Assembly (NCBI RefSeq): GCF_001677475.2
Contig: NZ_CP015229.1
DNA from: Escherichia coli
GTDB lineage: Bacteria; Pseudomonadota; Gammaproteobacteria; Enterobacterales; Enterobacteriaceae
Direction: 5' to 3' (one strand)
DNA length: 64,000 nt
The position numbers were made by a program, and so were the translations under genes. How positions within the stretch are numbered: the stretch's first letter is position 1; each line of letters starts with the position of its first letter. Shown here piece after piece: positions 15,712 through 38,544 of the stretch. The notes under the pieces were generated by a model that was not told the DNA's origin, ran no database searches, and saw only the letters and a list, made by a program, of their open reading frames with translations.

Positions 15712-15748
15712 TTATTTATATCTCCGTACAGCAGGGCTTTTATTGTTT

Positions 15749-18888: not shown

Positions 18889-18939
18889 CGCTATCTCGCT
18901 CAATAAGGCGGCGGAAAATTCCGCCGCATGAAGGTTTAG

Positions 18940-20622: not shown

Positions 20623-20954
20623 AAATGTTCCTCTTCTTATTGTACTTAATTCCAAAGTAATTTTACGAAGAGAAATAAGTGGATGTAAGTGAAGTTAGTC
20701 ACATAAAGAGATAGCAGATTTAGCTAAAAAAAGGGAAATAACAGTCCATAAAGCGTTGACATTACTTTTTGTTCTACTAAGTAATTTCTCGACGATAAAC
20801 AACTAATCTATTGATATTTAATAAATTATTGTATTTTACTGACAAAATGCCGAATTAAGATCATAAATAATCATGCAACAGGTTATGCAAATGCATAAAT
20901 ATGTGATGAATGTCACTTATTTATTTCAATAAATATATCGCCTAAAAACAACGC

Positions 20955-20975
20955 GGGGCAGGAAATGGCTGCCCC
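20955..20975 (-). terminator. Putative intrinsic terminator downstream of ydeO
   Basis: Hairpin ggggcag-gaaatgg-ctgcccc followed on the transcript by gcgttgttttt. Confidence 0.5.
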
Positions 20976-21023
20976 ATTTAATTCTTACGTAGCGTGTGTG
21001 GTTGACTACTCGTTAGCAAATAA

Positions 21024-21785
21024 TCAAATAGCTAAAGCATTCATCGTGTTGCCCTTATTCATACCCGTGTGCCTTTGACAACGGTACTCCTTAGAAACTC
21101 TCTTTGGACTGTTGCCAAAATGTTTGCGGAACGCATAAATAAAATAAGATGTACTGGCATAACCACATTGTTCGGCAATTTTATTGACTGAACCTTCTAC
21201 GCGTATCAAATTTTTTGCGTGCTGCATTCTGGCATCTAAAAGAATCTGTGAGAATGTCGTTTGCTCTTGCTTAAGTTTTTTCTTCAACAGGCTTTCACTG
21301 ATGTACAGGCAGTCACAAATATCTTTCAGCTTCCATGGGTGCGCCAGCTTCATGTTGACAATATTTCTCACTTTCCCGGAAACGGATAGCACACCGTTAG
21401 TTAATAGTGTAATGAAACCTTTGCATGCGGCAAAAATAGACAGGCAAGAAAAAAGCAAAAGTTCTGAAAAATTATGATGATTGCGTTCTTCCGAGTTGAG
21501 ATAAGCAATCATTTCATTAAGCAATCCAGTCGGTACATTTGAAGCACGTAAAAACTTCGCAGGAACAGGCACCGTCACTGTCTGGATGTTAGTGCATTGT
21601 AGATATTTTTTAATGGTATTTTCATTAAATCCGATTTCTTTAAAATGCCGCTCATAAGGTTCAAAATGCGTACGAACAGCGTTATCTACCATCAAGATCT
21701 CGCCGTCAGAGAAGGCGTAATCTTTATCTAAAATGTTAGCGTTGAAGGCATGATGAATAAATATAACAGAACAAACGAGCGACAT
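21024..21785 (-). CDS. ydeO: AraC-family acid-resistance transcriptional activator
   Basis: 253-aa ORF MSLVCSVIFIHHAFNANILDKDYAFSDG... with C-terminal AraC HTH; recognised as YdeO. Confidence 0.92.
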   Translation of the reverse strand: MSLVCSVIFIHHAFNANILDKDYAFSDGEILMVDNAVRTHFEPYERHFKEIGFNENTIKKYLQCTNIQTVTVPVPAKFLRASNVPTGLLNEMIAYLNSEERNHHNFSELLLFSCLSIFAACKGFITLLTNGVLSVSGKVRNIVNMKLAHPWKLKDICDCLYISESLLKKKLKQEQTTFSQILLDARMQHAKNLIRVEGSVNKIAEQCGYASTSYFIYAFRKHFGNSPKRVSKEYRCQRHTGMNKGNTMNALAI

Positions 21786-21859
21786 TTTATCTCCTTAAAA
21801 CAATAAAGTTTTTATCGATACTTTTTTAACATTTCATATTTATAATTTGCTGTTTATTT

Positions 21860-22057
21860 TCAGTCTTGCAAACTATTGATAATGAAATGTGTAATATCTC
21901 TTGCAATGCGACCCATTTCTGAAATACCCAGCTGATCAATTGCCGAAAAAATGGCTATCAACGTAAGTGTCAGTAATAAGACAACCACAATTACAGACAT
22001 GATTTCTTTATAGTTGTCTCTTTGCGTGATTTTGTTTTTCACTGTGGTCGCATGCAT
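21860..22057 (-). CDS. safA: Small membrane connector protein linking EvgS/EvgA to PhoQ/PhoP
   Basis: 65-aa ORF with a single transmembrane segment (IMSVIVVVLLLTLTLIAIFSAI); position between ydeO and ydeP as for safA. Confidence 0.85.
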   Translation of the reverse strand: MHATTVKNKITQRDNYKEIMSVIVVVLLLTLTLIAIFSAIDQLGISEMGRIARDITHFIINSLQD

Positions 22058-22168
22058 TTCAAATATGTTTATTTAGCGGATAACGTTAAAAATCGTTAAT
22101 CAGTATGCTTAATATAACAGGCTGGAGAAAAGAGGAAATAGGACTGGTGCTTCAGTACTGAGCGGAGT

Positions 22169-22186
22169 TTCTTACAGCTGTAGGCA
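22169..22186. promoter_or_regulatory. EvgA box upstream of safA-ydeO
   Basis: TTCTTACA-GC-TGTAGGCA, matching the inverted-repeat EvgA consensus TTCYTACA-N2-TGTARGAA (recalled), about 110 bp upstream of safA. Confidence 0.7.
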
Positions 22187-22304
22187 GAAGTTTATATCTT
22201 ATAGTATGTAGTTTAATTTAATCCATGTGAGCAAATTGCGCGATAATAGTCAATGAGGAATTCTTCTGCTGTGCGGATGACAGCAGAAGAAATGAGAAGA
22301 GGCA

Positions 22305-24584
22305 TTAATTTGATGGTTCTAATTCAACCGGAATACTTTTATAGCCAGGAATGCCACTTAATGGATCGTGGTTATCAAGTGTTAGCATGTGATTCGATTC
22401 TGGAAAATAGGTCACCAGTGAGCGGTCAGCCATAGGGTAAATGACCACTTTTAATCTATCCATGCGGCGTGAGCTGCGCTTACCGTCTGGCGTAAGCGCA
22501 ATAAGATTAACTCTTTCGCCGTTTTTTACACGGCAAATTTTAGCTTGTTTAGCACTCATAAAGACCACATCTCGTTGACCGAATACCCCTCGATAGCGAT
22601 CATCCATACCATAAATCGTCGTGTTGTACTGATCGTGGCTGCGTACTGTCGCCATGACCAGCTTACTATTAAACGCTGAAGAGGGATCTTCTAACAGCCC
22701 TTTGCTGGTAATGAAATTAGCCTTACCTGACGGCGTCATCCAGCGCCTTTCAGCAGCTGCATTTATCAGGTGAAAACCACCGGGATGACGGATGCGCTGG
22801 TTATAGTCGGCGAACTCTGGCAGCACAGCTTCAATGTCATTGCGAATGCGATCATAATCTTCCACCAGATACTCCCAGGCTACCACGCTCTGAGGTAGTG
22901 CTGCCTGCGCGATTCCCGCGACCACTGCACACTCTGATTTCAGCATTACACCGGCGGGTTTTAACACGCCACGCGAGGCATGAATCATCGACATTGAATC
23001 CTCAACGGTTACCGCCTGCGCACCGCTTTTTTGCATATCAATCTCGCTACGTCCCAGAACCGGCAGAATATAGCTATGCCGTGCGGTCAGCAGATGAGAG
23101 CGGTTAAGCTTAGTGGCTACGTGTACCGTCAGATCTAATTGCGTTAACGGTACAGCGCTCGCTTCCCGATCTGGCATTGCAAGTGCAAAGTTGCCCCCCA
23201 TGCAGATCAATGCTCGAGCTTGCCCCGTACATATAGCTTGCATGCTGGCAATTGCAGCATGTCCAGGTGCATGAGGTGGGGTGAAGCCATAGCGCTCACC
23301 AAGGCGAGCCAGAAACTCTGCAGACGGTTTCTCGGTGATACCGACGGTTCGGTCGCCCTGTACATTAGAGTGACCTCGTAGTGGGCAGATACCCGCACCA
23401 GGCTTGCCAATGTTACCTTTCATCAACAGCAGATTGACCAGTTGCTGTACATTCTGGGTACCATGTTCGTGCTGAGTGATCCCCATTCCGTAACAGATAA
23501 TGGTGCGTTCGGCAGCGACATATGCATCAGCCAGTTCGGCGATTTGAGTCTGACTTAATCCAGAAATACGTTCGATATCTTTCCACTCGGAATTGAGAAC
23601 GTCACGGCGTAGCTCGTCAAAGCCGACGGTATGCGTTTGAATAAATTCGTCATCCAGCAATGAGGGCCGACCTGCGGCGCTTGCAGCATCATCGCGCTCA
23701 ATTAACAGGCGCATCATCCCCTTGAGCAACGCCATATCGCCACCAATGCGCACGTTATAGTAGGCACTAGCCAACTGAGTCTCAGAGTTCGTCAGCATTT
23801 CAAACGGGTTTTGCGGTGCGGTAAATCGCTCCAGGCCACGTTCCTGTAGAGGATTGATGGCGATCATTTTCGCTCCCCGTTTCACTAAAGCGCGCAACGA
23901 AGTCAACATGCGAGGGTGGTTTGTACCAGGGTTATGCCCAATGCAAATGACTAAATCGCACTTCTCAAAGTCTTCCAGCAACACGGTCCCTTTACCCACA
24001 CCGATACTCGCTGCCAAACCCACACTGGTCGGTTCATGGCACATGTTGGAGCAGTCGGGAAAGTTATTGCTCCCGTATTCACGGGCAAAAAGCTGATAAA
24101 GAAAGGCAGCTTCATTGGAAGTGCGCCCCGAAGTATAGAATTCAACCTGATTGGGATCACTATAGCTTTGAAGGCGAGCGCCAATTTCGTCGAAAGCTTG
24201 TTGCCAGCTTAATGGCTTGTAACAGTCGCTGACGGCATCATATTTCAAAGGCTGAGTGAGACGCCCGGCAGCCTCAAGCTCGTGGTCTCCCCAGGTAAGT
24301 AATGATTGAACCGTATTCTCAGCAAAGAAAGAGGCGTTTACCTGCTTATCCGTGACTTCCCAGGCGATTGCTTTTGCGCCGTTTTCACAAATGTCGAATG
24401 ACGCACTGTGCTTAGGATCTGGCCATGCACAACCCGGACAGTCAAAGCCCTCTGGCTTATTCATGTCAAACATGGCAATAACATCCTGGCGTATATCCAT
24501 CTGCTTACGTACTGCATTCGCTACGGATTTAACAGCACCCCAACCACCGGCAGCTCCCTGGTAGGATTCAATTTTTTTCTTCAT
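22305..24584 (-). CDS. ydeP: Molybdopterin-type oxidoreductase, acid-resistance protein
   Basis: 759-aa ORF recognised as YdeP (formate-dehydrogenase-like family). Confidence 0.9.
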
Positions 24585-24824
24585 CTGCTTATCCTGTGTG
24601 GAAATGAATTATTAGGATTTGTAATAGCGATGATGCACAGTATATACAAAGGGATTATCGTCAACATGGATATAAGAGTAGGGGACTACTCTCTTTCTAT
24701 TTTAATCTATTATCGTTAAACAAAAGATTAAATACGATAAATTAAGCATCATCTCTCGTAGTGTTTAAATTAACATATTTTTCAATATAAAAAATAAGAC
24801 TCTGGCGTTAATTGTGCGCGGATT

Positions 24825-24842
24825 TTCTTACAGGTGTAGGAT
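24825..24842. promoter_or_regulatory. EvgA box upstream of ydeP
   Basis: TTCTTACA-GG-TGTAGGAT; same inverted-repeat pattern as the safA box, about 240 bp upstream of ydeP. Confidence 0.7.
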
Positions 24843-24914
24843 AATAGCCTTCACAAAATAATTATCCGCGCAATTTTCGCGAATGGAGCGCATAGACTAA
24901 GGTCAAAATCACAA

Positions 24915-25829
24915 TTATTCATAGATAAAAGTGACACCAATGACTGACTGGACGGTTCCGGCTGAAACTTTGTTTCCTGTTTGTCCATAGGTTGCGCTTA
25001 AACCCAGAGGTACTTTGCTTTTATTTACTGTCCCCAGGGAGACGTTTTCTCCCGTAGCCAGTATTTTTCCATTACGCATCAGAGAGACACCCACTCCCGA
25101 TGCTTTTGTTGCATCTGGTGCTGTGTTAGCAAACACTTGTCGGGCACTGTCAGTGGTGGCACCCGAAAGATAAAATGAGAGCTTTTGTTCACTTGAGCAA
25201 TATACGCCAAGTGGTATTTCTGCGCTTCCAGGAAAGTCCGGGAGATTCACGTTGACATTACGACTATCAACGGTGCAGCCGCCTGTTGGCATAACAACAC
25301 TGTTATTTGAAATAATATTCCACGTAAAATTACGCGGATTTCCGCTTCCTAACGTGGCAATTTTATACATATGAATACGGGCAATAACTTCCCCGGCTTT
25401 TATGACAACTCCACCGGCCGCACCGACTGGGGTAATATAGAGTTTTAACGGTAATGGCATCGGTGTCTTATCACCAATATCTAATACATTAGTATTTGTC
25501 GTCAACGGGAAGGGGTAGGTCACACTATTCCAGTACAGCGATCCTTTATATGACTGTAGGGAGCCTGCGAAAGCTGAGCCTTGTACCAGGTTTATATGAT
25601 CAGTATCGTACCAGCCGCCGTAATCATTCCAGCAACTTATATGCTGAGACAAGTCTACAACCAGATTCTGTCCCGGTTGTATTACAGGGTCGAGATTAAC
25701 ATAAACAGAGGTTGTACCTGCTCCAATACTTGCCCCGCCATCGACATTACAACTGAAGGCAAAAACTTTGCCTGCCATTAATAGAAGATAAATACCGAAC
25801 AGGACCTTTATACTGATTGTTTTACCCAT
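24915..25829 (-). CDS. ydeQ: F9/Yde-type fimbrial tip adhesin (FimH-like)
   Basis: ORF 24915..25871 trimmed to [24 protein letters not shown]... (304 aa); last gene of a chaperone-usher operon. Confidence 0.85.
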
Positions 25830-25889
25830 GATATATCCTAAGGTTAAAAAATTGATTAAAAAAGGAGGCAAAAAAAAATCGAATCGACG

Positions 25890-26393
25890 TTATTGCCAGG
25901 TGTAGATCACATTGATTAGCGCCTCGATCGTTCCCTGGCTTGCGTTTCCATTCACCGTGATAGCTCTTGCCTTAAGTGGAAACTGTGCATTACGAGTGAT
26001 CTCATCAACAATAACCGTTTTGCTATCGCCATTTTTTAACGTCGCATCCTGGTCATCCCTTAGCTCTATCTGAATATTTTCGGCAGTACCTTCATTTTTG
26101 TAATAACCCGTATTGTCAGTTGAACCTGTCACGATTGCCGTCACTGCACTTGTTTCAACCGGACAATCGGTTAATGACAAAGTAATATTGTGCCAGCCTG
26201 ATGCAGAACCAGGTTGTTGCAGATTGCGCGTATAAAGATCCCCGAGATTAACGTTAGCTTCTTTGGTTTGAATAGTGCAGGGTTTAGCGACTACCCGACC
26301 ATTAACAGTGATAGTGACATCGGCGGCCTGGAGAGTTGCTGTGAATAACGCGCAAAACGTAGCTAACAGGAACCTCTTGTGAAGTCTTTTCAT
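25890..26393 (-). CDS. ydeR: Fimbrial minor subunit
   Basis: 167-aa ORF with signal peptide and pilin-like C-terminus. Confidence 0.85.
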   Translation of the reverse strand: MKRLHKRFLLATFCALFTATLQAADVTITVNGRVVAKPCTIQTKEANVNLGDLYTRNLQQPGSASGWHNITLSLTDCPVETSAVTAIVTGSTDNTGYYKNEGTAENIQIELRDDQDATLKNGDSKTVIVDEITRNAQFPLKARAITVNGNASQGTIEALINVIYTWQ

Positions 26394-26405
26394 ATCTGAC
26401 TCTGA

Positions 26406-26936
26406 TTATTGAAATTCAAGGGTAAAGGTTGCCGAAGCCCTCACCAGTCCCGGATTGACGGAATTCTGCGTTGACTTCAAACGAGCGGAATAAGGCAAAA
26501 TATTGTTCTGTTCTGGTACCAGTGGGATCCACTGCATCCCGGCATGAAGGTCATTCAATTTCACCGGACGCATATTTCCGTCCAGTATTTCTATACCCAA
26601 ACCGGAGGCCGTATTGCTTCCTTCATCCAGTTTCAACAGAGTATTATTTTCTGCATCCTCAATCCCGTTAAATGCAACCCGAACCCCCGTTGTTCCTTTA
26701 CTGCATTCACTTAACGTAATCTGAAAAGGGACGGCTGGACCTGTGCTACCGGTCGTTGGAAATTGTCTGGCACTGTTTTTTTGGAGATCTACGGTAAAAT
26801 TAAGCGAATCCGATGAGACTGTGCAGCCATAATCGAGGACGCGCCCGCTAATTTTAATAACGCTATCTGCGGATAAAGCAGAATAGGTGGTTAACCCCAG
26901 ACATAAACCGAGGAAAATAATGTTATTGTATTTCAT
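26406..26936 (-). CDS. ydeS: Fimbrial minor subunit
   Basis: 176-aa ORF with signal peptide; pilin-like. Confidence 0.85.
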   Translation of the reverse strand: MKYNNIIFLGLCLGLTTYSALSADSVIKISGRVLDYGCTVSSDSLNFTVDLQKNSARQFPTTGSTGPAVPFQITLSECSKGTTGVRVAFNGIEDAENNTLLKLDEGSNTASGLGIEILDGNMRPVKLNDLHAGMQWIPLVPEQNNILPYSARLKSTQNSVNPGLVRASATFTLEFQ

Positions 26937-26949
26937 AATCTATTGTTCC

Positions 26950-29601
26950 TTAGCGACAGATTGCTGTCTGCTGGTTCAGTAAGGTACCAGGAGAAACTTC
27001 AGGAAGCTTGTACTCGACAATACAGTTTGAGTTTTTATCTTTGCCCCATGAAACCTGTAATTTCCCTGACTGTGGAAGTCCAGTCAGATAAACCTGACCG
27101 TTTTCCGCGACAATGCTGCCATTTTTATTCTCTCCATGTGTGACAATTGCACCGAATGGAACGCTCTTATTACCGTACTTCAACGTCATTAATACTTTCC
27201 CGCCGATTTGTGCATTAAATGTTGCTCTGGCAATAGCACCGTGAGTTGGGATGACAGTGACCACGGTTTCATCCAGTTCAACATTATCTGCAAGGGAATT
27301 CGCGTTAAGAGCGACACGATTTTCTCTATATTCTGTCGCAAATGGTAATATGGCATAGCCACGCCAGTCGGTATGAATTCCGGTCTGGTTCTCTATTTTG
27401 ACATTATCAGCGCCAGGAGCCTTAACCAGAACCATTGTGTCGCCCAGCGGCTGACCAAAGGTGATGCCATCAGCATGAGCAATAATCCCACCACTCATTC
27501 CGTAATAAATCTGGCTGCTGTCCCCACTCCGACTGTAACCGACATTAGTATTACCGTAAGCTCCACGATAATTAAGAGAACTGTAACCACTGGTGGCAGA
27601 CGATGTATTACCTCCGTGGGTGTTACCTACCTGAACGCTATAATTCAGGTTATTATCCGGCAGCAGAGTGCCATAAACCCCCGATAGATTGGTCATGCCG
27701 CCTTTCAAATCGTTTGACATACTGTAACTGGCGTTTGAATTACGAAATGCCGACTGACTGTCTGTACGCATCCAATGACTGAAGGGAACATTAAGCGTAA
27801 AAGCAAGTAAATGATCCCGATCGTTTTGCCATATATTATTGGAATAGCTGTAATTCAGCGAAGTCGTAATATCACCAAACGGCACATTTAATCCAAATGA
27901 TATTTGCTGGTCGCTGCGTGACGTGTTCCAGTAACTTTGGCGACTGGCACTGAAAAATGTCGTACCGTAATTTCCAAGCTGCTGAGAGATGCTTATTTGT
28001 TCCTGACCACGCTTACTGTAGAACAGATTAAAATAATCAATAAATTGTGTCTGCTCATTGCTGTCTCCGGTAGGAGGCTTGACGGTGTAACCACTCATTC
28101 GACTGTAGGCACTGTCGGATAAGTTATAAAAACCTTGCGTAGAATAGCGATATCCTGCGACCTGGATATTGGTTCCCGTCTGGTAGAAGGATTTGCTGTA
28201 GACGGATTTAATCGATTGCCCGCTGTGACGGGTGCCATCTGCAAGTGTCGTATTGGCCTGCGTGATATCGAAAGAAAAGGCACCAAAAAGTCCTAAATCT
28301 TTACCAATACCAAGGTTGAAGGCCTGATAATCTTCTGCAATTTGCATTCCGCCATAAGGTGTCCAGTTTCCTTCCAGTCCATGCATCAAGCTACCTTGTA
28401 TGAACTTGGGGGAGCTTTGCAGGTTATTTCCACTACGATATTCCCCCATGGCAAGCGCATAACGCGTATATCCAGCACGTTGGAGAACCGGAACAGACGA
28501 ATAAGGAACATATAATGTCTGAATACTGCCGTCTGCCTCTTTTATGGTTACTTGCAGATCACCACCATTGGCCGCAGAGTTGATATCATCAATAGTAAAA
28601 GGGCCGGGTGGAACAGTAGTCTGATAAACATCGTATCCGTTCTGTTTTACACTCACTTGTGCGGTGCCACGGGCAATACCATGAATCACCGGAGCGAAAC
28701 CATGTTGGCTATCGGGCAACATCGCTTCTGTTGAATTTATTTTGAGGCCACGAAAGTTCACACTATCAAAAATATCGCCATCGGTATAACTATCACCTAC
28801 CGTTAACCGTGAGCGTAAGGGAATAATGTCACGTTCAGCCGACGTATTGATATGCTGCCATTTATTGCTGTCAGATGAATTGCTACTCCCACTGTTATAA
28901 CTCCACGTTGAGTTATCGCGCAGTCGCCAACTACCAATGTTGATGCCACTCTGTAAATTCAAATATGCATAGTTGGATTTTCCTGCATTATGGTTACTAC
29001 GATTATTAATAGAATTACCATTAAAACTATAGTTTAGAAGCCCAGCATTTATTCCTTCTTCCCACAGATCAGGAGAAACATAGCCGCTAGCCATTCTGCC
29101 AACATAAATTTGCGGAACGGAGAGTGACAGATGTTGCTGACCAACATCAAACTCAGTTGATGCGTCGGCCAAACGATCCTGAAGTGGTGTGCATGCGCTG
29201 TTGTCCGGCACATGTTTTTCTGCCGAATGTTCCTTATTGCCTAATAATGCAGATTTTTTTATGCCAAGACTGACAAGAAGATCTGTACTCAGGCATGGGA
29301 TGAGATCTGCGTTATTATCATCTGCAATAAAAGTAATATCCCGACTAGTCATAAATTCGTCGTTCAAATAAATGTCGACCCGATATGTACCAGGTGGTGC
29401 CTCGCGTCCCTTAGTAAAGGCGGATAAATCGACAGATTCAGCAAGATCATTGCTTAAAAACCGTGGATTAAAATAATACTCTGCGTCAACGGGAAAAACC
29501 GCAGTTGCTAAGCCAAGGGCAATGGTAAGCCGTGCAAAGCGAGGCAGTAGTAACACCTGATGCATACGATATGCCTTAAATGCGGCACGAAAGGCTGTCA
29601 T
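26950..29601 (-). CDS. ydeT: Fimbrial outer-membrane usher, full length
   Basis: 883-aa ORF at usher size and position; in K-12 ydeT is only a fragment (recalled), whereas here it is intact. Start codon choice (MTAF vs MHQV) not resolved. Confidence 0.85.
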   Translation of the reverse strand: MTAFRAAFKAYRMHQVLLLPRFARLTIALGLATAVFPVDAEYYFNPRFLSNDLAESVDLSAFTKGREAPPGTYRVDIYLNDEFMTSRDITFIADDNNADLIPCLSTDLLVSLGIKKSALLGNKEHSAEKHVPDNSACTPLQDRLADASTEFDVGQQHLSLSVPQIYVGRMASGYVSPDLWEEGINAGLLNYSFNGNSINNRSNHNAGKSNYAYLNLQSGINIGSWRLRDNSTWSYNSGSSNSSDSNKWQHINTSAERDIIPLRSRLTVGDSYTDGDIFDSVNFRGLKINSTEAMLPDSQHGFAPVIHGIARGTAQVSVKQNGYDVYQTTVPPGPFTIDDINSAANGGDLQVTIKEADGSIQTLYVPYSSVPVLQRAGYTRYALAMGEYRSGNNLQSSPKFIQGSLMHGLEGNWTPYGGMQIAEDYQAFNLGIGKDLGLFGAFSFDITQANTTLADGTRHSGQSIKSVYSKSFYQTGTNIQVAGYRYSTQGFYNLSDSAYSRMSGYTVKPPTGDSNEQTQFIDYFNLFYSKRGQEQISISQQLGNYGTTFFSASRQSYWNTSRSDQQISFGLNVPFGDITTSLNYSYSNNIWQNDRDHLLAFTLNVPFSHWMRTDSQSAFRNSNASYSMSNDLKGGMTNLSGVYGTLLPDNNLNYSVQVGNTHGGNTSSATSGYSSLNYRGAYGNTNVGYSRSGDSSQIYYGMSGGIIAHADGITFGQPLGDTMVLVKAPGADNVKIENQTGIHTDWRGYAILPFATEYRENRVALNANSLADNVELDETVVTVIPTHGAIARATFNAQIGGKVLMTLKYGNKSVPFGAIVTHGENKNGSIVAENGQVYLTGLPQSGKLQVSWGKDKNSNCIVEYKLPEVSPGTLLNQQTAICR

Positions 29602-29642
29602 TATTAATTCCGATTGAGTTTATTATTAATTAGGTCACTGGC

Positions 29643-30362
29643 TTACTGCATGGTTGCCTTAATACGCGGAGTTAATGCACCGTAATCATTGATCGTCTGA
29701 AAACTGATGTCCCCGGTTGCAGCATGCGGGATATCCACCGATACTTCACCTTTTGGCGGCACCATGGTGTTTGGGAGATTGCTATTTCCTGCTTTCATAT
29801 TTGTTACGGTAATGAAGTAGGGCGTTGGATTAATAAGAGTGAGTTTGCTACCGCTGCGACGAAACCGAAGCATTGCAGGCGCTTCTTCAGGTGCCATTGC
29901 CAGGTTCGTGGGGCGATAAAACATTTTTATGCGGCTAATAATTGCCAGCTGTAATGTATTCTCATTCTTCTGGTCTTTTTCCATAGCAGGAATAGCTTTA
30001 ACATTAACCCAGAACAGGCTTTCACGGTCGCCTGGTAACTGATGATTAGTGGCGTTGATTATCCGCAGCGTATTCTCTTTTTTACCTTGCATGGAAAAAA
30101 GCGGTGGGGTAATGACAAACTGGGTGTCTTTTTGGTCACCTGCATTTTCTATCCATGACTGAATGAGATAGACACTGGCAGGATCATTATTCGTGACAGG
30201 CAATAAAACCTGTTTCTGGTTTGCCGGATAAATTACCCGCGTCGCACCCAGTGCGACAGCTGCGTTGGCAACGGTGCTATGGCAAGCAAAGAGCAATAAA
30301 AGTAACACTGTCGCCATAAAGGAAATAGAGTAGGGGGTACGCGTAGTTTGCATCTGATGCAT
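29643..30362 (-). CDS. Periplasmic fimbrial chaperone (PapD/FimC family)
   Basis: 239-aa ORF with signal peptide, immediately upstream of the usher. Confidence 0.85.
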   Translation of the reverse strand: MHQMQTTRTPYSISFMATVLLLLLFACHSTVANAAVALGATRVIYPANQKQVLLPVTNNDPASVYLIQSWIENAGDQKDTQFVITPPLFSMQGKKENTLRIINATNHQLPGDRESLFWVNVKAIPAMEKDQKNENTLQLAIISRIKMFYRPTNLAMAPEEAPAMLRFRRSGSKLTLINPTPYFITVTNMKAGNSNLPNTMVPPKGEVSVDIPHAATGDISFQTINDYGALTPRIKATMQ

Positions 30363-30714
30363 TCTCCATGTGTTAAGAGGATAAGCGGGGAAACCGTTAC
30401 ATCAGACAATCGGTAAATGTTGCTAATACATTGGCGACTCGCTGGGTTTCCATACTTAATGCGTTTGTAATAAATGTTGGTTCTCTTTTAATAGGAAAAC
30501 CTTGCTACAAAGTAAATTTTTTAAATAACAGTAAATTTAACTACTGTTGTTTATTGATCGTTTAGATATTATGTGATTTTTCATAGTGCTCCCAAATAAA
30601 AACCATTTCTCATTAAAAATGAGATGAACATTGGTGAGTTGCTCGGGTGTGCGTAGCCATGCCACACACACCCTGTTTCAATTTCAGATGACGTATAGCC
30701 ACCTTAAGATTGAA

Positions 30715-31278
30715 TTATAGATATTGAACTTTGAAGGTCGCATCTGCGTTTGCAGTACCAGCTACTGACTGCCCGAGAGCAATATAACGAGCCTGGAATG
30801 GCAGTATATTCGTGCCATCAATCAAGTCAGTTTTAGCGCTAAAAGTGGTACCATCAAGTATTAATACCTCCCCCGTACGGTCCAAAATTTGAATACCAAC
30901 ATTTTGGGCAGAGCCTGCCGCTGAACTCTGCAGCGCTAACGTGTCGTCATTACTGGTGACAGTAGTACCCAGGAATGCAACAGCTGCATTACTGGAAACA
31001 TTGGTATCACAATCATTCAGCTTGATATTGAAGCCAACGGCGGAGCTGAGGTCACCCGCTTTAGCCAGACGAGAAGAACGGACCTGACCCAGCTCAACCG
31101 TTTGGTTCATTGATTCTGAATCAATCGCACAAGCGGCATTTACCACTTCACCTTTAAAATGAATAACACCGCCATTAACAGTGGTCGTTACTGATTCATC
31201 ACCCTCGGCTGCGCTTACCGCAGCAGACGACATCGCCAACACAGAAACGACAATCATACCGACATGTTTGAGTTTCAT
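30715..31278 (-). CDS. Major fimbrial subunit (FimA-like)
   Basis: ORF 30715..31326 trimmed to [23 protein letters not shown]... (187 aa), preceded by GGAG; first gene of the operon. Confidence 0.8.
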
Positions 31279-31711
31279 AATTCTCCAAAATCTATATTTA
31301 AGTAGCTGAATAAAGAGAGTTAACAATTAAGTCATTCTGTTATTGCTTATAAAACAAGAATCATTCTTGATTGGTTGTTGCCCTGAGAATATAGTTTCCA
31401 GGGTTATTACATTTCACGAAGAACGATAATATCTTTAAATCACAAGGACACCTAATCACAACAAGTTTATTGCTGCACTTGTTGGAGAGAGTATTTGCAA
31501 AAACATTTTATGGCGCTAAATAACATGACGATTTCATTATGCATGTTATTTATAAACCGTGACTAAACAGAATATTATTGCGGACAAGGGAAGTGTCAGG
31601 AAAGGTCAAGAGATACTAATGGTTTATATGGCTATAAATCATTAGTTATGGTTAATGTTTGCCTGGTGTAACTAACACGGAATTGCTCTAAACAGATAAG
31701 TGCAGGGTTTA

Positions 31712-32062
31712 TTAAAGCTGACCGACAGACTTTCTTAACCTGGTAATATCTCTCTTAGGTGACTCTCCAAACATCCGCGAATATTCCCGACTGAAATGGG
31801 ATAAGCTTTCGTAACCGACAGCATAGGCTGCAGTGGTGACATCGTAATGTTCATTCAGCATCGGTCGCCTGGCTTCATTGAGGCGTAGCCATTTCTGATA
31901 CCGGAGTGGACTCATTCCCGCAAGCTGTCTGAAGTGTTGATGGAAAGAGGGGGGTTCATTTGCACGCGGTTTGCCAGCCTGACTCTTCAACGCAGGGAAG
32001 ATGCGGCAAACGGCAAACCTGCATACCAGCCAGCCTATATCCGGTATGCACAGGCTAATCAT
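31712..32062 (-). pseudogene. yneL: AraC-family regulator fragment (HTH domain only)
   Basis: 116-aa ORF carrying only an AraC-type HTH (…LSHFSREYSRMFGESPKRD…) with no sensing domain; corresponds to the yneL remnant that flanks dif in K-12. Confidence 0.6.
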
Positions 32063-32141
32063 GAAAGAGGAGAGGCTTTATGTTCTTGAACCCTGAAGTA
32101 ATAACGACGACCGGAAAATCGCTTCGCATCACTCAAACTCA

Positions 32142-32169
32142 ATTTAACATAATATACATTATGCGCACT
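32142..32169. other. dif-like site, left junction (attL): host-like XerD arm, phage-like XerC arm
   Basis: ATTTAACATAA-TATACA-TTATGCGCACT; 27 of 28 identical to the reverse complement of E. coli dif (GGTGCGCATAATGTATATTATGTTAAAT, recalled); the single mismatch is the outermost base of the XerC arm. Confidence 0.85.
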
Positions 32170-32181
32170 AAGGTGCGCATA
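32160..32181 (+). repeat. 9-bp perfect inverted repeat of the XerC-binding arm
   Basis: TATGCGCAC-TAAG-GTGCGCATA; the left half is the XerC arm of attL, the right half an inverted copy; overlaps a 10-bp palindrome CGCATATGCG (32176..32185). Confidence 0.8.
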
Positions 32182-32202
32182 TGCGTATTCTGGAGGTGTG
32201 TC

Positions 32203-33066
32203 ATGGCTTGTACTCGTCCTTTGAACGCGTACCAAATGCCATCGGGGAAGATTTTTTTCACGCCGTCACGTGGCGCTAAATTCATTCAGTTGCCCTGTGG
32301 TCAGTGCATCGGTTGCCGTCTTGCTCATTCTCGTGACTGGGCGACCCGCTGCGTTCATGAAGCCCACATGCACGATCACAATTGTTTTATCACTCTGACT
32401 TATTCGCCTGAGAATTTACCTGAAGGCGGTACTCTCGTTCGTAAACATTTCACCGATTTTATGAAGCGTTTGCGTAAGGAATTAGATAAGGATGATGTGA
32501 AAATTCGTTATTTTGGCTGTGGTGAATATGGCTCTAAATTAGAGCGACCGCATTATCATGCGATTATTTTTGGTTATGATTTTCCGGATAAGACACTTTA
32601 TAAAGCGGGAAGATTTAATTTATTTAATTCCCCGCTTCTTTCGAGATGTTGGAATCTTGGTTGGGCTGTTATTGCTGGTTTTAGTTTTGAGTCGGCTGCT
32701 TATGTGGCGCGATACTGTGTTAAAAAAATCAACGGTTTCCGTGCAGATGAGCATTATGGACATCGCCTACCCGAGTTTTCGGCTATGAGTAATCGCCCAG
32801 GTATTGGGTATGATTTTTTTATGACCTATTACGAGGATATTGTTAATGCAGATGCGTGTATTGGTCGTGGCGGTCGTCAGATAAAACCGCCCCGCTATTA
32901 TGACAAGTTATTATCAGGCTGTGATTTGGAAAAGTTGCAGCAGAATAAAGAAAAGCGCCAGTTAAATGCCCGTGTATTAGACCCGTGGCGTTTGCAGGAT
33001 TTGGATAAGTTTAATCTGGTTAAATTCCAGCGAATGATGAGGAAATTAGAAGATGGCTCACTCTGA
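32203..33066 (+). CDS. Replication initiation protein (VP4, rolling-circle HUH endonuclease)
   Basis: Track ORF 32080..33066 trimmed to MACTRPLNAYQ… (287 aa) with GGAGG 6 nt upstream. Rolling-circle motifs: FITLTY, HYHAIIF (HUH), AAYVARYCVKK (catalytic Tyr pair), plus CGQCIGC. Confidence 0.9.
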   Translation: MACTRPLNAYQMPSGKIFFTPSRGAKFIQLPCGQCIGCRLAHSRDWATRCVHEAHMHDHNCFITLTYSPENLPEGGTLVRKHFTDFMKRLRKELDKDDVKIRYFGCGEYGSKLERPHYHAIIFGYDFPDKTLYKAGRFNLFNSPLLSRCWNLGWAVIAGFSFESAAYVARYCVKKINGFRADEHYGHRLPEFSAMSNRPGIGYDFFMTYYEDIVNADACIGRGGRQIKPPRYYDKLLSGCDLEKLQQNKEKRQLNARVLDPWRLQDLDKFNLVKFQRMMRKLEDGSL

Positions 33067-33322
33067 TGCAGTTTATGTAATTCATGACAAGCTGATTGCG
33101 GCTGATGTTTTTATGTTTATGGCCCAGCATGATGGTATTGCGAAAGGCAATTTGCACGCGTTCTGTAACCGTATGCAGCGCACTGACTTTGTGCTGTACC
33201 GTGTGACGGCTTATGACTTTGAAGACCAGCAGCTCGTCCCCGTGGACATTGACCGCGTTTATATTTGCACCGCTTTCCCTGCCATGCTGGAGAATGCCCA
33301 AGATGAAATCCTTGAAGCGTAA
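33053..33322 (+). CDS. Small phage protein, VP5-like
   Basis: 89-aa ORF overlapping the VP4 3' end and the VP3 start; assigned by size and position in the gokushovirus gene order, not by motif. Confidence 0.6.
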   Translation: MAHSDAVYVIHDKLIAADVFMFMAQHDGIAKGNLHAFCNRMQRTDFVLYRVTAYDFEDQQLVPVDIDRVYICTAFPAMLENAQDEILEA

Positions 33323-33815
33323 GTTCCATACCCGCTATGACCCGCCGCCGTCGCCCGGCATCGAGTTCAAAGAACCCACGATGACCCAGCAGCATTTCCG
33401 CGATGAGTGCGACATCAACAAGATTGTTGAGCGTGCGATAAGAACGGGAGATACGACAGTCTTTACCAGTGCTCAACGTGCTGATTTCTACGATGCATCT
33501 TCGATTACTGACTACGTGGACGCAATGGCTTTAATTGACGACGTTAACGACGACTTTAACAGCCTGCCGTCCACGATTCGCTCGATGTTTGGTAATAACG
33601 TTAAGCAGTACGTTGAGTGGATGAGTAATCCCGCGAACTGGAATAAAGCCCGTGAGCTTGGATTGTTGAGCGGCGGAGAGGAGTCGGCGACCGAACGCGC
33701 CAGCGTTCGCGAGTCGAGTCCTGCTCCGGCGTCCCCGCGGGAGCGTGAGCGGACTTCGGAGAGTTCCCCGAAGGGGGAGTCGGAGAAGTCTGCGAATAAT
33801 GATGCAGGCTCATGA
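33303..33815 (+). CDS. Internal scaffolding protein, VP3-like
   Basis: ORF 33213..33815; likely start MKSLKRKFHTRYDPPPSPGIEF… (33303, or 33294); acidic Ser/Glu-rich C-terminus. Assigned by position and size. Confidence 0.6.
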   Translation: MKSLKRKFHTRYDPPPSPGIEFKEPTMTQQHFRDECDINKIVERAIRTGDTTVFTSAQRADFYDASSITDYVDAMALIDDVNDDFNSLPSTIRSMFGNNVKQYVEWMSNPANWNKARELGLLSGGEESATERASVRESSPAPASPRERERTSESSPKGESEKSANNDAGS

Positions 33816-33855
33816 GCTGCATGAAAAAAACCTGAAGACGGCTCCGGCCCTTCAG

Positions 33856-33892
33856 CCTGGCACAGTGGCCCTCTTGATGTAACTGTGCCAGG
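33856..33892 (+). repeat. 11-bp perfect stem-loop in the VP3-VP1 intergenic region
   Basis: cctggcacagt-(15 nt)-actgtgccagg. Confidence 0.8.
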
Positions 33893-33904
33893 TGACACCG
33901 AAAC

Positions 33905-33932
33905 TTACAGGCGGCTCCCACGAAGCCTGTAA
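33905..33932 (+). repeat. 8-bp stem-loop in the VP3-VP1 intergenic region
   Basis: ttacaggc-(12 nt)-gcctgtaa. Confidence 0.75.
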
Positions 33933-33992
33933 AAAGGTGTCAGTTTATACAGTAGTTTGTGTAGTATTTAAACAATTCCCTGAGGGGGGTTT

Positions 33993-35705
33993 ATGAGTAA
34001 ATTCGGTCGTAAAGTACCTAGTAATGCAAAAAGTCAGCATAATTTTTCAGTAATCCCGAGTGCCAATATTCAGCGTTCGGTCTTTAACCGCAGCTCTGGT
34101 TATAAAACCACTTTTGACGCTGGTTATTTGATTCCCGTGTTTCTGGATGAGGCTTTGCCGGGTGATACATTCCACCTGAAAACGTCCATACTGGCGCGTT
34201 TATCCACGCCAGTGGTGCCGTTTATGGATAACCTGCGACTGGACATCCAGTATTTTTCCGTGCCCTACCGTCTGGTCTGGGATAACTGGCAGAAATTCAA
34301 CGGTGAACAGAAGAATCCTGGCGATTCGACGGATTACCTTATTCCGCAGATTAAAGCCCCTGCTGGCGGCTTCCCTGTAGGCTCCCTTGCCGATTATTTT
34401 GGTGTTCCCACAGGTGTGGAGAATATCAGTGTAAGCGCCCTGCCGTTCCGCGCTTATAACCTGATTTATAACGAGTGGTATCGTGATGAAAACCTGATTA
34501 ATTCCGCCCCGCTTCCGCTTGGCGATGAGGAAGAAACAGGCCTCGCCAATTTCCCGCTGCGTAAGCGTGCCAAGCGTCACGATTACTTCACAAGTGCTCT
34601 GCCGTGGCCTCAGAAGGGTGAAGGCGTTGAGATTGGTTTAGGCGTTCCGCCGTCGTATACGCTCGATTTCCCGACCTATCCTGATGGTCTGCCGTTTGTT
34701 TCTTATGGCGTTGGTGTCGATGGAGATATGACTTCGCACAATCCGACTTATCTTGCCCGTAATAATGTTAACGAAGGCTCATCATACGAGGCCTATGGTA
34801 ATGCGGTTTATATGAGTGACGGCAGGAATCCCAGCAATCCGCTGGAATGGCCTCCTATGTCGCCCTCCACTGGACGTATTGATGTTATTGGTGGTTTTAG
34901 CAGAAACCAGCCTCCGGTTACGTTAAATAAGCAAGGTGGTGAAGTTGTCGATAATCTGACAATTAACTCGCTGCGTCAGGCGTTCCAGCTTCAGCGGCTG
35001 CTTGAGCGCGATGCTCGCGGTGGTACTCGCTATATTGAGATTATCCGCTCCCACTTTGGCGTTATTTCGCCTGATGCCCGTGTACAGCGTCCCGAGTATC
35101 TCGGCTCTGGTTCATTCGACATAAATATTAATCCTGTTCTTCAAAACTCCGCGACGACCGACGCAAGTCCGCAAGGCAACCTCGCGGCCTATGGTGTCTC
35201 CGGTGGTGTTAACCGTGGATTTTCTCATTCTTTTGTGGAGCACTGTTTTGTTATTGGCCTTGTTAGCGTTCGTGCTGACCTGACCTACCAGCAAGGCATC
35301 CCGCGCATGTTCTCCCGCCAGACCCGCTTTGATTTCTACTGGCCTGCACTGGCTCACCTGGGCGAACAGGCTATCCTTAACAAGGAGATTTACGCGCAAG
35401 GCAACGACAAGGATGATGAAGTATTTGGCTACCAGGAACGTTACGCGGAGTACCGCTACCGACCGTCTCAGATTACTGGTAAATTGCGTTCTACCGACCC
35501 GCAATCCCTCGATGTGTGGCATTTAGCCCAGCGGTTCGACTCTCTGCCCGCACTGAATCAGGAGTTTATCGAGGAGAATCCACCGATGAAGCGCGTCCTC
35601 GCCGTACAGGACGAGCCTCAGTTCATCATGGATGCGTTCTTCGACCTGAAGTGTGTGCGGCCTATGCCTGTTTACTCAGTACCAGGTCTTATCGATCATT
35701 TCTAA
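33993..35705 (+). CDS. Major capsid protein (VP1, Microviridae F-protein family)
   Basis: 570-aa ORF MSKFGRKVPSNAKSQHNFSVIPSANIQRSVFNRSSGYKTTFDAGYLIPVFLDEALPGDTF…, closely resembling the conserved N-terminal block of gokushovirus VP1 (recalled Chlamydia-phage pattern …IQRS.F.RS.G.KTTFDAGYLIP…PGDTF…); RBS GAGGGGGG. Confidence 0.9.
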   Translation: MSKFGRKVPSNAKSQHNFSVIPSANIQRSVFNRSSGYKTTFDAGYLIPVFLDEALPGDTFHLKTSILARLSTPVVPFMDNLRLDIQYFSVPYRLVWDNWQKFNGEQKNPGDSTDYLIPQIKAPAGGFPVGSLADYFGVPTGVENISVSALPFRAYNLIYNEWYRDENLINSAPLPLGDEEETGLANFPLRKRAKRHDYFTSALPWPQKGEGVEIGLGVPPSYTLDFPTYPDGLPFVSYGVGVDGDMTSHNPTYLARNNVNEGSSYEAYGNAVYMSDGRNPSNPLEWPPMSPSTGRIDVIGGFSRNQPPVTLNKQGGEVVDNLTINSLRQAFQLQRLLERDARGGTRYIEIIRSHFGVISPDARVQRPEYLGSGSFDININPVLQNSATTDASPQGNLAAYGVSGGVNRGFSHSFVEHCFVIGLVSVRADLTYQQGIPRMFSRQTRFDFYWPALAHLGEQAILNKEIYAQGNDKDDEVFGYQERYAEYRYRPSQITGKLRSTDPQSLDVWHLAQRFDSLPALNQEFIEENPPMKRVLAVQDEPQFIMDAFFDLKCVRPMPVYSVPGLIDHF

Positions 35706-35722
35706 GTTACATTGTCACTTTT

Positions 35723-35745
35723 GGCCTCTGCGGAGGCCTTTTTTT
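35723..35745 (+). terminator. Intrinsic terminator/attenuator after the capsid gene
   Basis: ggcctc-tgcg-gaggcc followed by TTTTTTT. Confidence 0.7.
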
Positions 35746-35759
35746 CATGAGGTGAAATT

Positions 35760-36542
35760 ATGGGCTTTTTATCATCTGCCATTGGTGCCGCTGGTTCTAT
35801 TGCCGGCTCCCTGCTTGGTGCGAACTCTGCGAAGGATTCAGCTAACCGTGCCAATAAGTTAACGATGGATTTGGCCAAAAACGGCATCCAGTACCGTGTG
35901 CAGGATTTACGGAAAGCTGGCCTTAACCCCATTCTGGCCGTTACTGGTTCCGGTGGTCTTGGTTCCGTCAGTTCGTCAGGTATTCAGGCCGCCCAGCCTG
36001 CCGATTTTTCTGGTGTGGTTAATTCTGCGGTCAGCGTATTTGACGCATTAACGAAGCGTCAGCAGCAGGAAGTCGCTAAGGAAGGCATCATGTCCCAGAT
36101 TGCGTTACAACGTAACCAGATTGCGAATAGCGCGGCTGATGTGAAGCTCAAAGAGGCTCAGGCTGCGCAAGCCTTATCTTCCATTTCTACTGGTAATGCC
36201 CAGACTAATTTGATTAATCAGCAGGCTTTGACCGAGGCTTCCCGCCGTGCCAATATTGAAGCACAGACGGGCCTTAGTTCTGCGCAGCGGATTAGAACAC
36301 AGTATCAAACTGTACAGGACAAGGTTTTGGCTGATTATTTGAATACACCGATTGGAGCTGAAAGTGCACGTGTCAATATGGATGCTTCTCGCGGTGGTAT
36401 CGTTGGCGGCGTTAATACTTTTCTGCGTTCTTTGCAACGTGATTACCCGTCTAACTCGAACTCTGCGAAGAAAGTAAACAAGGGGGGAACCTTCCCCCCT
36501 TCACAGTTCCAACAGCAATTGATTAATAACTATCGGAGGTAA
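35760..36542 (+). CDS. Minor capsid / DNA pilot protein (VP2-like)
   Basis: 260-aa ORF with Gly/Ala/Ser-rich N-terminus (MGFLSSAIGAAGSIAGSLLGANSA…) and Gln/Ala-rich predicted coiled region; RBS GAGGTG; position after VP1. Confidence 0.7.
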   Translation: MGFLSSAIGAAGSIAGSLLGANSAKDSANRANKLTMDLAKNGIQYRVQDLRKAGLNPILAVTGSGGLGSVSSSGIQAAQPADFSGVVNSAVSVFDALTKRQQQEVAKEGIMSQIALQRNQIANSAADVKLKEAQAAQALSSISTGNAQTNLINQQALTEASRRANIEAQTGLSSAQRIRTQYQTVQDKVLADYLNTPIGAESARVNMDASRGGIVGGVNTFLRSLQRDYPSNSNSAKKVNKGGTFPPSQFQQQLINNYRR

Positions 36543-36543
36543 T

Positions 36544-36663
36544 ATGGCTCGTTCTCGCCGTCGTATGTCCAAGCGTTCTTCCCGTCGTTCGTTCCGTAAG
36601 TACGCAAAGACGCATAAACGTAACTTTAAAGCCCGCTCTATGCGTGGTGGAATTCGTCTTTGA
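36544..36663 (+). CDS. Small basic DNA-binding protein (VP8 / J-like), absent from the ORF track
   Basis: ATG at 36544, stop TGA 36661..36663; translation MARSRRRMSKRSSRRSFRKYAKTHKRNFKARSMRGGIRL (39 aa, roughly 40% Arg/Lys). Confidence 0.7.
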   Translation: MARSRRRMSKRSSRRSFRKYAKTHKRNFKARSMRGGIRL

Positions 36664-36693
36664 TTGACAAAGTTGATCGTAACGATCTATGAT
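36664..36693 (+). promoter_or_regulatory. Putative sigma70 promoter at the prophage right end
   Basis: TTGACA (36664..36669), 18-bp spacer, TATGAT (36688..36693); the spacer contains GATCGTAACGATC with two GATC sites. Pattern match only. Confidence 0.35.
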
Positions 36694-36716
36694 AATTATC
36701 GTAAGTCGTTGTTTTT

Positions 36717-36744
36717 GTTAAACTAAATATACATTATGCGCACC
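36717..36744. other. dif-like site, right junction (attR): phage-like degenerate XerD arm, host-like XerC arm
   Basis: GTTAAACTAAA-TATACA-TTATGCGCACC; XerD arm 7 of 11, central region 6 of 6, XerC arm 11 of 11 versus dif. Confidence 0.8.
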
Positions 36745-36820
36745 AACATAAACCAAGGGAGAATCCAGTCGTTGGCGGTCATGATTGTCCTGCTCATTAA
36801 CAACGGCCAAACCCCATATC

Positions 36821-38409: not shown

Positions 38410-38430
38410 GTCATACGTCCATAGCAAATT

Positions 38431-38544
38431 TATCCGCTCAAGGGGATATTATCAGTTTTATCCTTTAGTGGGGATAAAGTCAATCAGGAAACACATTTTA
38501 TCCGCTCTACGGGATAAACGCTGCGATATCCGCGATCGCGGATA
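38431..38544. promoter_or_regulatory. Four HipB operators upstream of hipBA
   Basis: TATCC-N8-GGATA at 38431..38448 (TATCCGCTCAAGGGGATA), 38459..38476 (TATCCTTTAGTGGGGATA), 38499..38516 (TATCCGCTCTACGGGATA) and 38527..38544 (TATCCGCGATCGCGGATA). Confidence 0.9.

Follow-up and report, generated by a model that had tools for sequence, protein, structure and literature searches.

The locus at 24915..31278 of the Escherichia coli DNA analysed here (a stretch of 64,000 nucleotides, hereafter the window) is an intact F9 (Fml/Yde) operon for chaperone-usher pili, found where this operon normally lies in the chromosome, and what is added to this known operon is small: a strongly conserved RNA hairpin just past the major subunit gene. 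The hairpin resembles a barrier to mRNA decay more than an intrinsic attenuator. The locus as a whole is very probably best explained as an intact F9 operon with its published promoter, in which the hairpin would act as a 3′ protective structure.

Six intact genes lie co-oriented on the minus strand and encode, in order of transcription, the major subunit, the chaperone, the usher, YdeS, YdeR and YdeQ/FmlH (Table 1), which is the order that defines F9 (PMC3966885). None of the six ORFs contains an internal stop, and their lengths equal those of the genes annotated by RefSeq in strain VCSW5. The chromosomal position is also that of F9, the flanks of which have been described (PMC3966885): ydeP (22305..24584) lies downstream and the hipBA side upstream, so that the operon sits between ydeP and an AraC-like pseudogene adjoining dif and hipBA. 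At 36821..38200, beyond a prophage, lies an ORF that agrees with hipA in size and position, and the segment 36726..40287 aligns at 96% with the hipA-hipB region of K-12. The prophage itself, a gokushovirus integrated at dif between the AraC-like fragment and hipA, is rare and already published. A preliminary description of the window had recognized an F9/Yde operon with all six genes intact and co-oriented. Gene order, gene lengths, flanks, NCBIfam models, the match to FmlH and the promoter all agree with this identification, and the uninterrupted ORFs, equal in length to those of VCSW5, bear out the intactness. The span given for the operon, 24915-31326, is right at its start; its end is an upstream TTG, and the annotated ATG is at 31278. 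The start of YdeQ is placed at 25829, versus 25871 for the mechanical ORF. Intactness is read here from the ORFs, and intact ORFs are no proof that this strain makes pili.

Table 1. Features of the F9 operon and its control regions, in window coordinates.
Feature	Coordinates	Strand	Size	Remarks
f9 sigma-70 promoter	31536..31565	-		promoter scan
AT-rich 5′ UTR of major subunit mRNA	31279..31529	-	251 nt	GC 0.33-0.40
Major subunit (fmlA; 'fimA' in RefSeq pipelines)	30715..31278	-	187 aa	
Small 7-bp hairpin	30686..30704	-		directly past major subunit stop; whole-gap fold
Conserved 13-bp hairpin	30645..30673	-		GGGUGUGUGUGGC-AUG-GCUACGCACACCC; begins 42 nt past major subunit stop
tctcatt/aatgaga stem-loop	30608..30624	-		named in the preliminary description
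Untranslated AU-rich spacer	30354..30714	-	361 nt	352 nt if an upstream in-frame ATG is used
Periplasmic PapD-like chaperone	29643..30353	-	236 aa	
Full-length outer-membrane usher	26950..29601	-	883 aa	no internal stops; length equal to the VCSW5 gene
YdeS, FimF-like adaptor subunit	26406..26936	-	176 aa	NCBIfam FimF, 237.9 bits (cut-off 200)
YdeR, FimG-like adaptor subunit	25890..26393	-	167 aa	NCBIfam FimG, 256.6 bits (cut-off 220)
YdeQ/FmlH, two-domain tip adhesin	24915..25829	-	304 aa	
Weak terminator-like hairpin, T-rich tail	24864..24884	-		terminator scan; 31 nt past ydeQ stop

The major subunit scored 172.7 bits against the NCBIfam FimA equivalog model (cut-off 140). The chaperone aligns over its full length with FimC structures (E = 1e-88); its score against the NCBIfam FimC model, 259.5 bits, falls below the cut-off of 327, and it is therefore a paralogue and not FimC itself. 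Similarly, residues 42-883 of the usher align with residues 2-833 of the solved FimD chain, and the score against the FimD subfamily model (847.7) is below the cut-off of 975. The lectin domain of YdeQ/FmlH is identical to that of crystallised FmlH (PDB 6AOW) at 158 of 160 residues, the two differences (mature positions 9 and 78) lying outside the pocket. The residues that define the galactoside-binding pocket, F1, Y46, D53, K132, N140 and R142 (PMC5866590), are all identical. The operon may end at the weak hairpin past ydeQ (-7.7 kcal/mol, z -0.28).

Upstream of the major subunit gene, the promoter consists of a -35 element TAGTCA (31565..31560), an 18-nt spacer and a -10 element CATAAT (31541..31536), with the transcription start, a G at 31529, 251 nt upstream of the ATG. 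In strain CFT073 the promoter was mapped by 5′ RACE to TAGTCG, 18 nt and CATAAT, with a start G at -251 (PMC3966885). The core was kept in all six aligned sequences, K-12 included. H-NS binds the 251-bp leader fragment of CFT073 in gel shift assays (PMC3966885), and in published work on the operon H-NS silences F9 transcription at 37 °C, with relief at ~20 °C. The base composition of the leader in the window would be consistent with H-NS repression and with expression at ~20 °C. In a CFT073 transcriptome f9 expression was low and showed no thermoregulation (PMC12890032), so regulation of F9 may depend on conditions. An RNA thermometer in the 5′ UTR was considered and rejected, as the leader fold is not unusually stable (z -0.44, global fold). 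A search for a fimS-like invertible switch revealed no suitable inverted repeats (the arms were 14-48 nt apart or overlapped as palindromes), and no recombinase ORF was found upstream of the operon.

The preliminary description had reported a gap of about 350 bp between the major subunit and chaperone genes, with two stem-loops that may attenuate transcription in favour of the major subunit. The gap is real, at 361 nt, and both stem-loops exist: tctcatt/aatgaga lies exactly where it had been placed, and ggtgtg/cacacc, put at 30636..30666, is the 13-bp hairpin of Table 1, 7-9 nt away. The two differ markedly in quality. The 13-bp hairpin folds with -23.8 kcal/mol (z -4.7), and none of 200 shuffled sequences folded as well. 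The antisense strand reaches only -16.0 kcal/mol; the mRNA strand is 7.8 kcal/mol more stable because two G-U pairs form on that strand only. Variable columns number 2 of 29 (7%) in the hairpin versus 101 of 326 (~31%) in the remainder of the gap (Fisher p = 0.005), 11 of its 13 pairs do not vary among 11 diverse E. coli, and the spacer of RMDEC465, which is 81% identical, retains the hairpin at -20 kcal/mol. The hairpin is single-copy in the genome. A comparison of 11 E. coli revealed no covariation in the F9 hairpins; within F9 covariation is impossible because the sequences are too similar, and since the 13-bp hairpin hardly varies, the evidence that bears on its structure is only that of energy, conservation and strand asymmetry. 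The tctcatt/aatgaga stem-loop folds with -5.4 kcal/mol (z -0.38), a stability that 60 of 200 shuffles attained. It has two G-C pairs, falls where the gap varies most and has 3 of its 7 pairs broken in some strains; in the UTI89-labelled record, A33, WP3, O157 and RMDEC465 the breaks are uncompensated. This stem-loop is probably not functional. Pairing in the small hairpin directly past the stop codon holds in 98.7% of cells, with one break and two one-sided changes (A-U to G-U and G-U to A-U); it is weak, and its meaning is uncertain.

Little else was detected in the spacer. Rfam gave no match there, and neither an E-value search of 24000..40000 nor a gathering-threshold search that took in six related loci returned a relevant family; the sole Rfam match, OxyS inside ydeQ, is at chance level. 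No conserved ORF was found, the longest being at most 44 aa. A 15-aa spacer ORF preceded by a GGGAG Shine-Dalgarno sequence was rejected, as an extra A frameshifts it in 3 of 11 strains.

A decay-barrier stem-loop is a stable, conserved hairpin immediately 3′ of a cistron, and this is what is found at 30645..30673. Published work on the same operon indicates that subunits reach the usher by way of the chaperone, that the usher assembles major subunits into a polymer beneath a tip of YdeS, YdeR and FmlH, and that the ligands of FmlH are glycans ending in Gal(β1-3)GalNAc or Gal(β1-3)GlcNAc. We propose that the 13-bp hairpin is a 3′ protective structure for the major subunit mRNA. Endonucleolytic cleavage would occur in the AU-rich untranslated spacer, and 3′-to-5′ exonucleases would then stall at the hairpin. 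The major subunit message would thereby outlive those of the chaperone, usher and tip proteins, and this longer-lived message would provide the excess of major subunit that a pilus requires. Some transcription termination in the untranslated spacer may contribute. For malE-malF and papA a decay barrier of this kind is the established model (PMC5927463). In many Enterobacterales, conserved hairpins that show compensatory GC to AU changes follow directly upon the major subunit gene of type-1-like operons.

The attenuation proposed in the preliminary description stands only in part. It holds that the stem-loops are partial terminators, polymerase stopping after the major subunit gene in some rounds so that less chaperone and usher mRNA is made. 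The 13-bp hairpin is indeed real, exceptional and conserved, and as a very stable, GC-rich structure directly past the first cistron it is what such a model would place there. The 330 nt of untranslated RNA beyond it could permit Rho-dependent termination, T runs accompany the major subunit hairpins of Proteus and Acinetobacter relatives (L057, L073 and L080), and the papA 3′ structure has been described as a terminator (PMC5927463). However, an intrinsic terminator has a GC-rich stem with a U tract within 0-2 nt, and neither stem-loop conforms. In the 8 nt past the 13-bp hairpin, GAGCAACU, the only U comes last, and the terminator scan called neither stem-loop terminator-like. The tctcatt/aatgaga stem-loop is at chance level and broken in several lineages, and its U run begins 6 nt later and is interrupted in most strains. 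Nor does the spacer, whose mRNA strand (A 0.34, U 0.31, C 0.19, G 0.17) is not rich in C, obviously favour Rho loading. Because the 13-bp hairpin has no U tract and is not terminator-like, differential mRNA stabilisation fits better, and we consider attenuation rather unlikely.

It is improbable that the spacer is a decayed fimI-like gene, or that it carries an internal promoter for the chaperone, usher and tip genes, with the hairpin merely ending the major subunit transcript. A fimI-like gene of ~179 aa is present at the position of the spacer in most of 37 related type-1-like loci inspected, and related operons of this type are nearly always so equipped. A promoter-like sequence (TTGGGA, 16 nt, CATAAT) is located at 30595..30568, and the block around its CATAAT is well conserved. 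However, two divergent F9 spacers gave only E > 3 for fimI similarity in any frame, whereas a frameshifted fimI used as positive control was found at E = 1.6e-31. These searches were tblastn runs whose queries were the fimbrial proteins of the window and 37 proteins from upstream ORFs, most of them FimI-like; six-frame translations scanned with an HMM of 32 FimI-like proteins likewise yielded nothing. As for the internal promoter, this sequence is the sole candidate and matches at only 9 of 12 positions, promoter-like matches numbered 16 versus 18.8 expected from shuffles, and the -35 element and spacing differ among strains. Least probable of all is that the palindrome is a DNA site for a dimeric regulator or nucleoid protein, or is conserved without function, for example through recent recombinational spread: the 13-bp element is an inverted repeat in DNA too, the RNA structure is without covariation proof and conservation among closely related E. 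coli strains is weak evidence, but the two G-U pairs would be mismatches in DNA and in antisense RNA, the same genomes vary freely in the flanking spacer columns, and the divergent RMDEC465 allele keeps the hairpin.

Returning to the protective hairpin, a bolder extension can be put forward only tentatively, and the odds are against it: the invariant hairpin and the spacer in the place of fimI may together form an F9-specific post-transcriptional module that sets the ratio of major subunit to assembly machinery. Such a module, which might also release a stable 3′ UTR-derived RNA or respond to temperature and in that way account for the translational and temperature effects reported for F9, would add to this known operon a level of regulation that is new to the literature.

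Of 5426 complete E. coli genomes, 3592 (about two thirds) carry at least 80% of the locus, a count consistent with the intact F9 reported for 60% of E. coli (PMC3966885). The operon is therefore already known, and because about two thirds of complete genomes carry a copy, one more intact copy adds nothing new; earlier papers cover not only the operon but also its promoter, its receptor, how H-NS and low temperature regulate it and how it is distributed in the population (PMC3966885, PMC5866590, PMC7766294). When genome contigs were searched with the chaperone, one E. coli-like contig, wrongly labelled as a Nanosynbacter MAG, was retrieved and all others were relatives at most 70% identical, which is consistent with F9 being specific to E. 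coli (see also PMC3966885). Alignment to K-12 MG1655 bears out the earlier statement that its usher is a fragment and its upstream genes are missing: MG1655 retains ydeQ, ydeR and ydeS, but of the usher gene it has just 1227 nt at the 3′ end, and it lacks 28177..31456 of the window. F9/Fml pili matter in chronic urinary tract infection, calf gut colonisation and plant attachment, and FmlH is a drug and vaccine target. The value of the present analysis is modest: a clean, checked annotation; a clearer view of the stem-loops, of which one is conserved and decay-barrier-like and the other is noise; and a spacer in the fimI position with no detectable fimI remnant.

Compared with the F9 loci of CFT073, UTI89 and O157:H7 (c1931-c1936; ECs2113 cluster), the six-gene order is identical and the flanks are alike, with ydeP on the downstream side and an AraC-like fragment and hipBA on the upstream side. 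Other E. coli F9 loci are 96.5-98.6% identical in nucleotide sequence. The promoter is like that mapped in CFT073, with TAGTCA in place of TAGTCG at -35. Nothing essential differs from known F9 loci; the window has the two lectin-domain substitutions outside the pocket, and its upstream neighbour is the gokushovirus prophage.

The type 1 fimbriae (fimAICDFGH), encoded by a paralogous gamma-1 chaperone-usher operon, have the same assembly machinery. The structures of FimD, FimC and FimH give full-length alignments with the F9 usher, chaperone and adhesin, the FimF- and FimG-like adaptors match, and both operons have a structured element past the major subunit gene. F9 differs in having a non-coding spacer instead of fimI, in lacking a fimS-like invertible switch and adjacent recombinase genes, in a chaperone and an usher that score under the curated FimC and FimD cut-offs, and in its receptor, a galactoside, whereas that of type 1 fimbriae is mannose (PMC5866590). 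Furthermore, where the spacers of type-1-like operons contain a pair of short hairpins whose loops include GGA, that of F9 contains a single long hairpin that lacks GGA. The closest functional parallel that we infer for the F9 hairpin, which is unrelated in sequence to REP elements and to pap, is with the malE-malF and papA 3′ stem-loops: in each case a very stable hairpin follows the promoter-proximal, most-needed cistron (PMC5927463), and an unstructured AU-rich stretch then follows the hairpin.

Six open reading frames without internal stops lie in one orientation between 24915 and 31278, and all six have the lengths found in VCSW5, the best-matching annotated E. coli genome, when RefSeq start codons are compared. 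The intact, co-oriented operon of the preliminary description is thus borne out; its end, earlier placed at 31326, is an upstream TTG of a mechanical ORF, whereas annotation starts the gene with the ATG at 31278. The intergenic distances are 60, 12, 13 and 41 nt, the outlier being the 361-nt gap (30354..30714) between the major subunit and chaperone genes.

Coordinates of the F9 genes, the neighboring genes and the dif sites
Feature	Position	Strand	Length	Remark
ydeP	22305..24584			flank of the F9 operon
YdeQ	24915..25829	minus	304 aa	
YdeR	25890..26393	minus	167 aa	
YdeS	26406..26936	minus	176 aa	
Usher	26950..29601	minus	883 aa	
Chaperone	29643..30353	minus	236 aa	
Major subunit	30715..31278	minus	187 aa	
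AraC-like fragment	31712..32062		116 codons	other flank of the F9 operon
dif site	32142..32169			differs from the E. coli dif consensus at one position; borders the prophage
dif-like site	36718..36745			half-diverged; other border of the prophage

The locus is an intact F9 operon, as had been proposed: the adhesin, the NCBIfam models and the mapped promoter all agree. The lectin domain of YdeQ matches FmlH, the crystallised F9 adhesin (PDB 6AOW), at 158 of 160 residues (E = 2e-106), with substitutions at mature positions 9 and 78 only, and the residues reported to form the galactoside pocket of FmlH (F1, Y46, D53, K132, N140 and R142; PMC5866590) are all kept. Scores against NCBIfam models passed the cut-off for the major subunit (FimA), YdeS (FimF) and YdeR (FimG). 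The chaperone and the usher narrowly missed those for FimC and FimD, which is what a type 1 fimbriae paralogue should give. The chaperone aligns with FimC over residues 13-235, and the usher with FimD over 42-883. The F9 operon is already known and common, and its assembly pathway and receptor have been published (PMC3966885, PMC5866590, PMC7766294).

In CFT073, the f9 promoter mapped by 5′ RACE consists of a -35 TAGTCG and a -10 CATAAT separated by 18 nt, and transcription begins at a G located 251 nt upstream of the ATG (PMC3966885). At 31565..31536 we found TAGTCA, 18 nt and CATAAT, and the G at 31529 is exactly 251 nt upstream of the ATG; this core is kept across strains. With a GC content of 0.33-0.40, the leader and promoter are AT-rich, in agreement with the H-NS binding published for F9. 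A perfect 11-bp inverted repeat at 31517..31552 (coding strand AAATAACATG... / ...CATGTTATTT, arms 14 nt apart) encloses the start site together with the -10 hexamer; it is mostly kept among strains, with one variable arm position, and might serve a dimeric regulator as its operator. No thermometer signal was found in the leader (5′ UTR), and no invertible switch at the F9 locus.

Some match to the locus was present in 5361 of 5426 complete E. coli genomes, and at least 80% of its 7.1 kb was covered at one place in 3592, an upper bound on intact copies since operons split by insertion sequences were joined into one place; this agrees with the 60% reported intact (PMC3966885). Alignment of K-12 MG1655 showed the truncation stated in the preliminary description to be correct: ydeQ, ydeR and ydeS are retained, the usher gene is reduced to its 3′ 1227 nt, and 28177..31456 (the usher 5′ 1425 nt, chaperone, spacer, major subunit and 178 nt of leader) is absent. 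The f9 promoter and about the first 72 nt of leader remain, fused to the 3′ usher part, so that the remnant ydeT'-ydeSRQ still lies behind its native promoter. A record labelled UTI89 (NZ_CP062985.1) has a 1.9-kb internal deletion (26187..28082) that takes out the usher 3′ part, ydeS and the ydeR 5′ part. A 25-kb contig (JARKOR010000214.1) labelled as a 'Candidatus Nanosynbacter sp.' MAG bears an E. coli F9 operon (chaperone 100%, DNA 98.1% identical to ours), and is almost certainly a binning contaminant. Among the 5426 genomes, identity to window 1..31711 peaked at 98.4-98.6% (20 kb of flank, or the F9 locus), so the source lineage is poorly represented among complete genomes; VCSW5 and VCSW7, both isolated from soil, gave the top F9 matches.

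A gokushovirus (Microviridae) prophage of about 4.5 kb (4.55 kb; 32170..36717) is integrated at dif, where it separates the AraC-like fragment from hipA and lies some 0.6 kb upstream of the f9 promoter. Over 87% of its length the prophage shares 92% identity with Escherichia phage EC6098, and PHROGs confirmed its replication initiator, structural protein, major capsid protein and pilot protein. A similar prophage was found in just 6 of 5426 complete genomes; such a prophage at dif is rare but already known (PMC7062461). In the UTI89-labelled record, the dif side of F9 bears genes of filamentous-phage type, coding for a zonular occludens toxin family protein and a GspD-like secretin; here too a mobile element at dif adjoins F9.

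The 367-nt stretch holding the spacer folds better than its shuffles (z -5.2), mainly because of one hairpin, GGGUGUGUGUGGC-AUG-GCUACGCACACCC, at 30645..30673, which begins 42 nt past the major subunit stop codon (13 pairs, -23.8 kcal/mol, z -4.7). Among 11 E. coli spacers picked across 81-98% identity, 2 of 29 hairpin columns vary, against 101 of 326 in the remaining gap (Fisher p = 0.005), where variability peaks just 3′ of the hairpin; both hairpin variants keep a fold of -20 kcal/mol. Owing to two G-U pairs the antisense strand folds at just -16.0 kcal/mol, and this asymmetry points to a sense-strand RNA. These spacers showed no covariation in the hairpin, since it hardly varies, and its support therefore comes from energy, conservation and strand asymmetry. 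The other stem-loop of the preliminary description, 30608..30624, is regarded as chance: it has -5.4 kcal/mol (z -0.38), its pairing is broken, uncompensated, in the UTI89-labelled record, A33, WP3, O157 and RMDEC465, and most strains have an interruption in its 3′ U run. Searches of the spacer found no Rfam family, no conserved small ORF and no supported internal promoter.

Species-representative genomes were scanned with the F9 chaperone. A single E. coli-like contig matched at 100%, and the type-1-like operons of other genera reached 70% identity at most. Of 37 loci inspected, the majority have a fimI-like gene (~179 aa) directly upstream of the chaperone gene, hence the F9 spacer stands where fimI would be. 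No remnant of fimI was detected in any frame of our spacer or the divergent RMDEC465 spacer (E > 3); the same profile recovered fimI from a Providencia locus in which the gene is frameshifted (1.6e-31). In the relatives, conserved hairpins that show compensatory changes from GC to AU lie within ~45 nt past the major subunit gene, which argues that a structured element there is a family trait. Their stability exceeds that of shuffles modestly (median z -1.9), whereas F9 scores z -6.4 in the same test and thus has its own, much stronger version.

In the fimA-fimI spacer of type-1-like operons (loci L013-L088, 1-70 nt past the fimA-like stop, alignment A2) we observed two conserved short hairpins with GGA in each loop, GC-ARGGAN-GC and GGGCC-AGGAN-GGCCC, in Klebsiella, Raoultella, Citrobacter, Kluyvera, Serratia, Erwinia and others. 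In the second hairpin, the outer pairs covary from GC to AU (10 and 5 of 39 sequences). Both hairpins resemble binding hairpins of the CsrA/RsmA type; no Rfam family matched. An Aeromonas cavernicola contig without fimI keeps both, so that they go with fimA.

The attenuation suggested earlier for the spacer stem-loops holds up by half, one of them being a genuine conserved hairpin and the other a chance stem. It would require partial transcription termination, which appears unlikely: no U tract follows the hairpin at 30645..30673, and a terminator scan did not list it. A role in mRNA stability is probable. In the best-supported reading, held with moderate confidence, cleavage would occur within the AU-rich untranslated spacer, an exonuclease would stall at the hairpin, and a long-lived major subunit message would remain. 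The F9 hairpin may thus be a 3′ protective structure for the upstream message, of the kind described for malE-malF and papA (PMC5927463).
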